Positions 47,376 through 50,523 of a DNA stretch of 64,000 nucleotides are shown piece by piece. A program made the position numbers and the translations under genes. Within the stretch, counting starts at the first letter, position 1; each line of letters starts with the position of its first letter. The notes under the pieces were generated by a model. The model saw only the letters and a program-made list of their open reading frames with translations. It had not been told where the DNA came from and ran no database searches. This DNA is from Octopus vulgaris (Eukaryota), in NCBI GenBank assembly GCA_951406725.2, contig OX597816.1:79794001-79858000 (forward strand), read 5' to 3'.

Positions 47376-47418
47376 GATAGAGATAGAGAGAGGAGTTATA
47401 CAGCCATATATACACACA

Positions 47419-48236
47419 CACATTCAGAAAGTATCTGACTTCATATTTTCCGCCAAAACTAATACCACGTGGGCAGAGACGCGTGGAAATTTTCGTGACG
47501 TTAAGCTGCGCACTTCCCGTCTATCACACTTACAGTATAGGCGCGCTCGTCGGAGATTCGTTTTCGCCGAAAGCATCGAACAGTGATACTACATCAGGTT
47601 TAGCTAAAAGCCTGGTGATACTCAAGCTCAAACCACGCAGAAAATTCAGCAGGCTTCAGGCGATTATGTCATGTGCAAAGATCAAGGAGTGGTACAACTG
47701 CTTCAAACACGGTCGCACCACACTCGAGAGCGAAGCCTGCCAGACAGGCCATCCACAAAGCTGGAACGAGGAGCCAATTGAGAAGGTTCGGCAAATAGTC
47801 ATGGAAGACCGTCGTGTAACAATAAAAGAAATGGCTCACGAAGTGAGAATAAGCAATGGATCAGTGCATTCCTTTTTGACGGAGGATTTGTGCATGCGCA
47901 GAGTGTCGGCGAAATTCGTCCCCATTGTACTTGCGGTGCAGCAGATGCAACTTCTCATGGAAATCGCTCAGGACATGCTAGACAGTGCAAACACCGTCCC
48001 GAACTTCATGAAAACCAGCGATGAGACATAGGTTTATGGTCTCTGCTCGATGCGTTAGGTTATCTTGCGTGAAAACTAAACTACAAGTAGTGCGCACTGC
48101 GCGGGTATACTCCAGGCAACTGCTTCCGCTTACCGGCGCGAAAATTTTCCCGCATGTACCTCTCACTCAAGGGATTCTGCCAAGCGACATTACTTTTGGC
48201 GGGAAAACTTTAAGCCGTATACTTTTTGAATGCAAC
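47419..48236 (+). mobile_element. Internally deleted mariner element
   Basis: IKEWYNCFKHGRTTLESE..VMEDRRVTIKEMAHEV..LCMRRVSAKFVP..SDET*VYG. TIRs CATTCAGAAAGTAT..TTTTCCGCCAAAACTAAT / ATTACTTTTGGCGGGAAAA..ATACTTTTTGAATG. Confidence 0.9.
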
Positions 48237-48558: not shown

Positions 48559-48626
<68 letters not shown>

Positions 48627-48841
48627 ATATGGGATAACATTTTTCGAAAAAAATTTTATCAATGGCCAGCATATTAAAAATACCTTTAAGGTTAAATTTA
48701 TAAACAACTTATAAACAAAGGTAAAAGAAAAAAAATTCTAATGCCGAATATGCCGAAACTAGACACATCGTCCATAACCATATAATTTATCACTATAAGC
48801 ACGCGTCTTCTTCGAGAAGACGATATAACGACATTTTTCAA

Positions 48842-48893
<52 letters not shown>

Positions 48894-49170
48894 GCATACA
48901 CACACACACACACATATATATATATGGCTGAAACAAGTAAAAGTAAAAGAATATATAAACACGAACATACACGTATGGCTTTGTGTATGTGTGTGTGTGT
49001 GCGTGAGAGAGAGAGACATAGACAGACAGGTAGACAGACAGAGACAGAGGTAGAAATTATAGAAGATTTATTGAAGCCTTGGCTAAAATGTTTAACGCTA
49101 AACGATAAGAAGAAAAGTAATCTTCGTTATTCTCGCAAATACCTCTATCTCCATATCTATTATAACATCC

Positions 49171-49251
49171 CAAAATAACATTAATTCCGCAAACCAGGAG
49201 AAAATTAAAAAAACATTTACCCTGTAGTTCTTTATACGATGCACCGTTTCA
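49171..49251 (-). repeat. Inverted partial copy of the 484-bp unit (3' half of the hammerhead plus downstream sequence)
   Basis: Near-exact reverse complement of about 49647-49727 (TGAAACGGTGCATCGTATAAAG...GCGGAATTAATGTT). Confidence 0.9.
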
Positions 49252-49564
49252 CCCTTGGCTGTTATTTCTAGTGGGTGAATGGCCTATTATGGCCGTTCCT
49301 TGATTTTACTGTTGAATTTATAAATGGTCTATGACTATTTAATTTTTTCCCACTAGGCCGCTGGTGGCAAAAGAATTCTACGAAATTTTTTGCCACCCTA
49401 TATTGATTAATTATGAATTTTCTGGTTAATTCCGTAATGGAATCGGCGGCTTATATTTGCTGCCGATAAATTTGGCGCGAGTGCGATGATTTGAAAATTT
49501 TAGGTCATATATTGCCGAGACAGTGATGGAAGTGCCTCGTGTAAATATCTGCTCCGATCTGGCC

Positions 49565-49671
49565 GTTCTTTACTGACGAATCTATCGGCCTATGGAAGAC
49601 TAGCTTGATTTAATTTAATCACGTTAGTTTACCATTAAACAATAGATGAAACGGTGCATCGTATAAAGAAC
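49565..49671 (+). ncRNA. Type I hammerhead ribozyme, unit 1
   Basis: Stem I GTTCTTTA(49565-72)/TAAAGAAC(49664-71); CTGACGA 49573-79; long stem II closed by ATCTAT/ATAGAT; GAAA 49648-51; short stem III ACG-GTGCAT-CGT; GUA cleavage triplet ending at 49663. Confidence 0.85.
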
Positions 49672-50048
49672 TACAGGGTAAATGTTTTTTTAATTTTCTC
49701 CTGGTTTGCGGAATTAATGTTGTTTAGCGGTTGAAGCCTTGGCTGTTATTTCTAGTGGGTGAATGACCTATTATGGCCGTTCCTTGATTTTACTGTTGAA
49801 TTTATAAATGGTCTATGACTATTTAATTTTTTCCCACTAGGCCGCTGGTGGCAAAAGAATTCTACGAAATTTTTTGCCACCCTATATTGATTAATTATGA
49901 ATTTTCTGGTTAATTCCGTAATGGAATCGGCGGCTTATATTTGCTGCCGATAAATTTGGCGCGAGTGCGATGATTTGAAAATTTTAGGTCAGATATTGCC
50001 GAGACAGTGATGGAAGTGCCTCGTGTAAATATCTGCTCCGATCTGGCC

Positions 50049-50155
50049 GTTCTTTACTGACGAATCTATCGGCCTATGGAAGACTAGCTTGATTTAATTT
50101 AATCAGGTTAGTTTACCATTAAACAATAGATGAAACGGTGCATCGTATAAAGAAC
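50049..50155 (+). ncRNA. Type I hammerhead ribozyme, unit 2
   Basis: Same core as unit 1 shifted by 484 (CTGACGA 50057-63). The variant AATCAGGTTAG pairs better with CTAGCTTGATT in stem II. Confidence 0.85.
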
Positions 50156-50291
50156 TACAGGGTAAATGTTTTTTTAATTTTCTCCTGGTTTGCGGAATTA
50201 ATGTTGTTTTGCGGTTGAAGCCTTGGCTGTTATTTCTAGTGGGTGAATGGCCTATTATGGCCGTTCCTTGATTTTGCTATATATATATATA

Positions 50292-50523
50292 TACGAGGAG
50301 GTGTTGAAACGTTCCTGGCTTTAAGGGTGTCGCGAAAGGCCTGGTTGGTGGCCCAACCTTCTGAGTTCTTTAAAAGAGCTTAGAAAAGCTGAAGGACCGC
50401 CGCCGCAATGAGTGTGGGAATCTGAGAGGGGAATATGTTGGATACAATCATAATTAATTAACTGATCCTCCTGCATTTTCTTTTATCCAAAGCCAGGAAC
50501 TTTTCAGCACCACCCACCTCGTA
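50292..50523. mobile_element. Mariner-type MITE (TACGAGG ends)
   Basis: TACGAGGAGGTGTTGAAACGTTCCTGGCTTT / AAAGCCAGGAACTTTTCAGCACCACCCACCTCGTA. Same family as 21345-21554 in opposite orientation. Confidence 0.8.

Follow-up and report, generated by a model that had tools for sequence, protein, structure and literature searches.

A 64,000-nucleotide stretch of Octopus vulgaris DNA (the window) carries a short non-coding insertion that consists of two head-to-head arms and abuts a microsatellite (table 1). Unit positions are numbered from the base after the first predicted cut (position 1 = window 49664), with the short 3′ end of the family at ~131 and the long one at ~235. The 484-bp period of the main arm extends over 1026 bp with 6 mismatches, and the inverted arm, 81 bp in length, matches the unit at 98.8%. 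The preliminary description had reported 2.1 tandem units over 49171..50275; the period was confirmed, but the first 81 bp of that interval proved to be the inverted arm and not part of the tandem. The outer end of the inverted arm is atypical, being located off the long end of the family (235) and with no (AT)n there, and the arm was probably shortened after insertion. In detail, the unit-to-unit difference inside the window copy is 0.73%, which corresponds to an age of roughly 1 million years if the octopus distance of 0.09 per 25 million years given in PMC13282606 applies. Unit position 129 is A in both inner passes and G in the terminal pass. The three hairpin pairs named previously were found in the unit, and the reported lack of ORFs of 60 aa or more holds, as the longest ATG ORF has 18 aa on both strands of the unit read as a circle. 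The 1-kb bins containing the copy show a GC content of 35-37%.

Table 1. Features of the retrozyme insertion (window coordinates)
Feature	Position	Strand	Remarks
Inverted arm	49171..49251	-	Unit positions 468-484 and 1-64 (hammerhead 3′ half and monomer start)
Main arm	49253..50278	+	2.12 head-to-tail units; from unit position 74, twice round, to the short 3′ end (131)
Type I hammerhead 1	49565..49671	+	Stem I 49565-72/49664-71; CUGACGA 49573-79; stem II 49580-49647; GAAA 49648-51; palindromic stem III; predicted cut after 49663
Type I hammerhead 2	50049..50155	+	CUGACGA at 50057; predicted cut after 50147
Predicted monomer, cut to cut	49664..50147	+	484 nt, without ORF
16-nt motif	49739..49754	+	Unit 76-91; also at 49255-70 and 50223-38
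104-nt "tail" between the two fixed 3′ ends (unit 131 and 235)	49795..49898	+	Internal in the window copy; also at 49311-49414
(AT)n target microsatellite	50279..50293	.	Abuts the short end

The left flank (49040-49180) is single-copy. Within it, 49071-49084 (+) matches unit 68-81 exactly over 14 bp, at a distance of 90 bp to the atypical end of that arm; this match may be due to chance or be the scar of a repair event. A fragment of a second hammerhead element is located 370 bp from the window copy, at 48625-48806 (-); it shows an 86% match to the sequence just downstream of the hammerhead of a different family (the type of L132, L042/L052 and L323). A 214-aa stop-to-stop frame at 47387-48031 (+) resembles what we take to be a Tc1/mariner transposase fragment, and presumably a mariner-like end starts at 50293, right after the (AT)n. 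A local Penelope fragment matches an Octopus database protein at 83% over 53 aa.

A complete type I hammerhead had been proposed for each full unit, with an 8-bp stem I, CUGACGA, a long stem II, GAAA and a GUA site. Both were recovered by a hammerhead scan, and no others were found on either strand of the 64-kb window. The canonical type I features (CUGANGA, GAAA, NUH core and three helices) are present. Stem I has 8 bp (GUUCUUUA/UAAAGAAC), stem II comprises 68 nt, and the cleavage triplet is GUA. The usual stem II is of 4 bp and that of the octopus unit is far longer. Rfam returned no hammerhead match for the unit, either at the gathering score or at E up to 10, and thus the Rfam check envisaged in the preliminary description gave nothing; this miss is likely due to the 68-nt stem II. 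A weak Rfam match to mir-5728 was rejected as chance.

The short stem III of the preliminary description is present, but as a hairpin it barely folds alone (-0.2 kcal/mol, with pair probabilities of 0.05 or less). It is a near-palindrome, and two copies form instead a duplex of -17.5 kcal/mol, which corresponds to the dimer known from type I hammerheads of animals (PMC4209133). The folding of the circular monomer, also a check envisaged earlier, resulted in an MFE of -142.5 kcal/mol with 61% of the bases paired (z -4.8 versus 40 shuffles), in which stems I and II are formed (pair probabilities 0.53-0.90) and stem III is not. The folded monomer therefore shows stable self-pairing with the hammerhead stems left free to form. 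Folding is no less significant for the minus strand than for the plus strand (z -5.7 versus -4.8), so the z-scores do not tell the strand.

In 21 hammerheads spanning the lineages, 96.6% of the cells pair, versus 29-47% in slid controls. Four pairs change on both sides and three of these belong to stem I, the helix which joins both ends of the monomer; a count of four is reached by 46 of 500 shuffles, in a test inflated by the relatedness of the copies. Two-sided change beyond the hammerhead is scarce (5 of the 136 predicted pairs in all). The core letters are invariant across 85 loci, with A, C, G and U all occurring at N7 and A or C at H17, the cleavage base. Since the stems covary, the core is invariant and the junctions at the cut site are seamless, the hammerhead is, on these comparative grounds, under selection.

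The insertion belongs to a large dispersed family, as the genome-wide copy number check has shown: a 23-mer of the unit has 4,070 exact genome matches (reversed control 0) and the stem III variant of the window has 1,017 (control 1). The monomer search gave at least 191 matches, from the 40 of 1,560 candidates that were scored. Copies are found over most chromosomes of this AT-microsatellite-rich genome of 2.8 Gb. Mapping was carried out for 85 loci, a sample of likely over a thousand, of which 51 derive from best-hit lists (L022 and L029 among them look like one duplicated locus) and 34 are all the clusters among the first 100 position-ordered 23-mer matches. The subfamilies are 82-99% identical to the window unit and unit length ranges from 484 to 493 nt. 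Arms reach up to ~9 units (locus L201), and at some loci the units differ by only 0.0-0.1%. LTR-like architecture occurs in none of the 85 loci.

The 3′ ends of these loci cluster at unit 126-133 and 228-239, almost always with (AT)n immediately adjacent, and define two fixed 3′ ends 104 nt apart. The 5′ ends and the inversion points are scattered across the unit, apart from an excess near the cut site (see below). A short end is paired with a long one in every two-armed locus that could be scored, that is, in 33/33 and 21/21 in the two locus sets (54/54), after exclusion of 18/51 and 13/34 loci, which are mostly single-armed and include six with one atypical end, the window copy being one of them. 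The same rule applies to 11/11 scorable two-armed copies belonging to three autonomous RT+GIY-YIG families found in this genome, whose tails measure 39, about 158 and 71 nt; the RT and GIY-YIG domains of one of these families are Pfam-supported. Target-site duplications are unreadable inside (AT)n. As far as their structure tells, the insertions carry the Penelope signature, that is, an (AT)n target, head-to-head arms and two fixed 3′ ends. The Penelope-type mobilisation put forward in the preliminary description is supported by this family-wide end geometry, the (AT)n targets and the inverted arms.

The distribution of variants among the passes of a locus is informative for the template. Variants found in at least three loci are fixed in all passes of a multi-pass locus in 309/342 cases of the first set and 246/269 of the position-ordered sample (555/611 combined). 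The respective values for one-locus variants are only 15/168 and 22/94, and two-locus variants behave like these private ones (5/54 and 4/15 fixed). In young arrays, divergence does not rise with distance: for L172 it is 0.06, 0.00 and 0.16% between adjacent, distant and opposite-arm passes, and for L201 and L220 it is 0.47/0.37% and 0.14/0.06% between adjacent/distant passes. In two older arrays, adjacent versus distant passes differ by 1.42 versus 3.79% (L199) and 1.87 versus 3.11% (L206), with 369 and 322 bases compared. No indel is found at the cut-site junction in 216/217 scored crossings; of the 56 arms in the ordered sample, 38 extend across the cut site, including 17 with at least two crossings. 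Since inherited variants mostly occur in all passes of a locus, and divergence in the youngest arrays is alike for adjacent, distant and opposite-arm passes, a single template of unit length, in the simplest case a circle, likely gave rise to each insertion. Linear copying of older tandems would pass a one-unit mutation to one pass only, and the fixed variants speak against it. The preliminary description had seen rolling reverse transcription in the more-than-unit length of the window copy; a unit-length template is indeed supported, but length alone is no proof and the variant pattern carries most of the weight.

A putative footprint of cleavage is also apparent. In the ordered sample, 16/56 arms stop in unit 1-44, an interval with 10.2% of the bases at risk (p 1e-4). 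This excess lies on the first pass, with 13 stops in 2,025 nt versus 3 in 2,066 nt later (6.4 versus 1.45 per kb; Fisher p 0.012), the 13 deriving from only about 8 loci and being placed mostly at 9-34, not at 1. Two arms, one per locus set, begin at position 1, and in five loci both arms stop in this 44-nt interval, as would be the case for an RNA terminating at the cut. A hairpin at about unit 11-42 coincides with the stop region and could itself cause fold-back. This excess of short arms just past the cut site suggests cleavage in vivo.

Near-identical sequence occurs in four organisms. Contigs of four runs guessed to be RNA (X1, X2, X6 and X7, from four studies; 4 of 24) cover 29, 29, 29 and 27 of the 29 unit bins and show no molecule ends, which gives a hint of RNA expression of the family. 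In the contigs of X2, one of these guessed RNA runs, depth is of the order of 10,000 and refers mainly to other subfamilies, the window letter at unit 4 amounting to about 1%. The window copy is probably an end product or dead end and not a source, because a read-through transcript would allow its inverted arm to pair with the cleavage half of a hammerhead, and because its haplotype makes up ~1% of the depth in the deepest of these runs.

Tandem type I hammerheads, the lack of an ORF, the dispersed family and the self-paired monomer support the retrozyme identity suggested at first. The window copy is most probably a young non-coding insertion of a non-LTR retrozyme, with a predicted self-cleaving unit of 484 nt that is likely to form a circle and to be inserted into (AT)n by a Penelope-like RT/GIY-YIG enzyme acting in trans. 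The proposed sequence of events would begin with transcription of a tandem locus, for which family RNA is hinted. Two hammerheads would then pair via the palindromic stem III, cut and free the monomer; the structure and its selection are observed and the cleavage is presumed. By analogy to the RtcB-ligated retrozymes of coral, mussel and axolotl, the monomer may be ligated into a circle. A putative Penelope-type enzyme would open both strands of an (AT)n tract, and the two DNA ends would be primed at the fixed sites of one RNA, unit 131 and 235, in agreement with the observed geometry and single template. Each cDNA would extend round the RNA over a variable distance that may reach about 9 units, and both would be joined head to head, giving the inversion; the resulting structure is observed and the order of events is conjectural. 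Linear cleaved RNA may be copied as well, producing the short two-armed copies that end just past the cut site.

The same retrozyme and enzyme could also have worked on a linear template, either read-through multimers of uniform young arrays or terminally redundant RNA with template switching, in which case circles may exist without being the template. This appears unlikely. The anole PAc protein inserts in vitro without need of hammerhead activity (PMC11167929), linear RNA serves as a substrate, as is evident from the short arms with ends close to the cut, and the distance to the nearest locus is often as low as the distance within a locus, the latter being the smaller in only 22/36 loci, so that any single locus taken alone may derive from a uniform linear source array. 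However, fixation of inherited variants at the frequency given above would need a recurring one-unit bottleneck followed by re-multimerisation. The seamless cut junctions also argue against a linear template, as does the lack of a clear set of position-specific variants common to loci among the 18 two-locus partial cases.

With respect to the enzyme, the genome offers several candidates. At least seven young Penelope-like families have intact ORFs of 727-980 aa (L051-L068; L110-L141; L223-L238; L239-L263; L289-L336), several of them with long inserts rich in asparagine and with tails of unusual length (71 and about 158 nt). Eight of the larger number of Penelope-like families in this genome were compared with the unit and showed no significant similarity in DNA sequence; these are the families of 781 aa (L051-68), about 900 aa (L110-141), 727 aa (L223-238), 842 and about 980 aa (L239-263), 718-722 aa (L264-281), and 776 and 784/785 aa (L289-336), the 3′ ends of the 776-, 842- and 980-aa families often lying beyond the sequence compared.

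Exact degenerate matches to the 16-nt motif of the unit, which precedes the short end by 55 nt and the long end by 159 nt, number 32,918 genome-wide (control 9). Among the first 30 matches, 13 are in other hammerhead-type tandem or two-armed elements, which terminate on (AT)n at distances of 55-85 and 141-195 nt past the motif, and the remaining ones are in a different dispersed repeat. None of the eight sampled Penelope-like families has the motif in its own tail. As a guess, the motif is a candidate cis signal recognised by the enzyme. The 718-722-aa family was rejected as driver: the motif is found antisense in 18/18 copies, but inside a small two-armed insertion of another hammerhead family. 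A look-alike (14/16) in the 727-aa family is placed upstream, not downstream, of a hammerhead-like core and was not counted, and a motif beside a Penelope fragment at L192 is a separate insertion.

The small two-armed retrozyme of the 718-722-aa family (L264-L281) is a fixed passenger in the 3′ microsatellite region, ~500 bp past the ORF stop, in 18/18 copies; many copies of this family have identical stop codons and yet multiplied. An abundant dispersed repeat also has the 16-nt motif (L144-L150 and others), and in its 107-bp tandems at L173 3501-3900 and L174 3491-3680 an (AT)n end follows 56 nt past the motif, equal to the short-end distance of the retrozyme. Further long-stem-II type I hammerhead elements are those of L129 6356-7098 (antisense to an ORF, oriented coordinates), L142/143, L163-165, L072, L186, L187, L154/155, L095, L106, L063, L246 and L329. 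Several of them form tandems without ORFs, of about 550-620 bp, that carry the same 16-nt motif and terminate on (AT)n at two ends in the same way. Because of these many elements, the genome is retrozyme-rich.

It is quite improbable that the unit represents the pseudo-LTR of an autonomous Penelope-like element outside the sample, with the tandems as by-products. The insertion geometry is identical, two autonomous families of this genome have long-stem-II type I hammerheads in their own pseudo-LTRs, and Xenopus retrozymes are related to pseudo-LTRs (10.64898/2026.07.22.740005). In addition, window 49777-49799 (unit 114-136), at the short end, echoes the 5′ strand of the unit's own hammerhead and that of the about-900-aa Penelope family, with 19/21 agreement to the latter over unit 116-136 (E 0.19), and is possibly a decayed second hammerhead. 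Nevertheless, the unit contains no RT+GIY-YIG ORF, and a fixed upstream junction is absent in the 85 loci (18 of them with flanks of only 1.5 kb). Penelope-protein matches in the flanks of 10 loci vary in family, strand and distance, and in L217, the single same-strand upstream case inspected by base, the match is separated by its own (AT)n end.

A satellite grown by DNA-level unequal crossing-over after single insertions, or a mis-assembled tandem, is hardly credible and largely refuted: local tandem growth by unequal crossover is the model in 10.64898/2026.07.22.740005, and the two older arrays have larger differences between distant units, but the arrays are short, dispersed and end at the same two positions on (AT)n, young ones lack an adjacent-versus-distant gradient, both inverted arms are of one haplotype, and the window units differ at 6 sites.

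Beyond the retrozyme insertion by a Penelope-type enzyme, a wider reading is advanced tentatively, as a serious possibility rather than the expected outcome. One enzyme complex would prime both (AT)n ends at two obligatory sites on a single circular RNA and roll round it, and the family would be one of a set of cephalopod hammerhead circles which have in common a 16-nt recognition motif absent from the sampled autonomous elements, are selected as RNAs and are untied from one parent pseudo-LTR.

The return of retrozymes to DNA is proposed only, in the accessible text of PMC7229834 and 10.64898/2026.07.22.740005, and the octopus family offers footprints in the genome that can be counted in support of a one-unit template and of a Penelope-type enzyme acting in trans. 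The strict rule of one short and one long end constrains the origin of head-to-head Penelope inversions, that is, self-priming on antisense RNA versus two-end priming. For direct testing in vitro, a small, young and natural substrate is available in this family, along with several candidate enzymes that are intact, and the family reveals a class of long-stem-II hammerheads overlooked by Rfam.

Similarly to the animal non-LTR retrozymes (coral, mussel, axolotl; PMC7229834; 10.64898/2026.07.22.740005), the family consists of short, AT-rich tandems that lack ORFs and have one type I hammerhead in each unit, with a weak palindromic stem III suited to dimer cleavage, a self-paired monomer and co-occurring Penelope-like elements. 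Its units of 484-493 nt are above the 170-400 nt given by Cervera and de la Pena 2020 (PMC7229834) and inside the range of 51-972 bp given by Li, Clavereau and Pollet 2026 (10.64898/2026.07.22.740005). In the latter study, on Xenopus, pseudo-LTR homology is found in 24/57 families and is thus not universal, and only 1/9 predicted dimers cleaved in vitro. Unlike these animal retrozymes, the octopus family has a 68-nt stem II missed by Rfam, shows no pseudo-LTR homology among the eight sampled families and is known here from DNA. The inversion, the two fixed ends and the (AT)n target are not described for retrozymes in the accessible text of either paper. No report of a cephalopod retrozyme was found in the literature, including the accessible part of PMC10886601, and paper supplements and repeat databases could differ; the main text of the octopus repeat paper PMC13282606 has neither "retrozyme" nor "hammerhead".

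EN+ Penelope-like elements (Penelope/Poseidon, Neptune and Hydra; PMC8557442, PMC3846280, PMC11167929) have in common with the octopus family a head-to-head inverted, 5′-truncated arm, a tail on one end, two internal RT start sites, a microsatellite or AT-rich target and a hammerhead upstream of the start sites. The octopus family differs in the lack of an RT/GIY-YIG ORF, in a tail of 104 nt versus their 30-40 and in the seamless repetition of the unit up to about 9 times. Because it is without an RT + GIY-YIG ORF, it is not an autonomous Penelope element and works like a passenger of such. In this respect it resembles the non-autonomous Chlamys elements, for example MRC1 (PMC8557442), which are non-coding Penelope passengers with multicopy head-to-tail insertions. 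On the contrary, those match their autonomous partner at the 3′ end and belong to a clade lacking canonical hammerheads, whereas here the hammerhead is conserved and no partner similarity was found among eight families.

The class and its link to Penelope-like elements are already published. According to PMC7229834, the circles "would be" RT templates, with Penelope-like elements named as candidates, and 10.64898/2026.07.22.740005 shows the relatedness to Penelope-like elements and suggests local tandem growth. Compared with these systems, the octopus family is new in its lineage, its long stem II, its long tail and the countable genomic support that it gives to a mechanism so far proposed.
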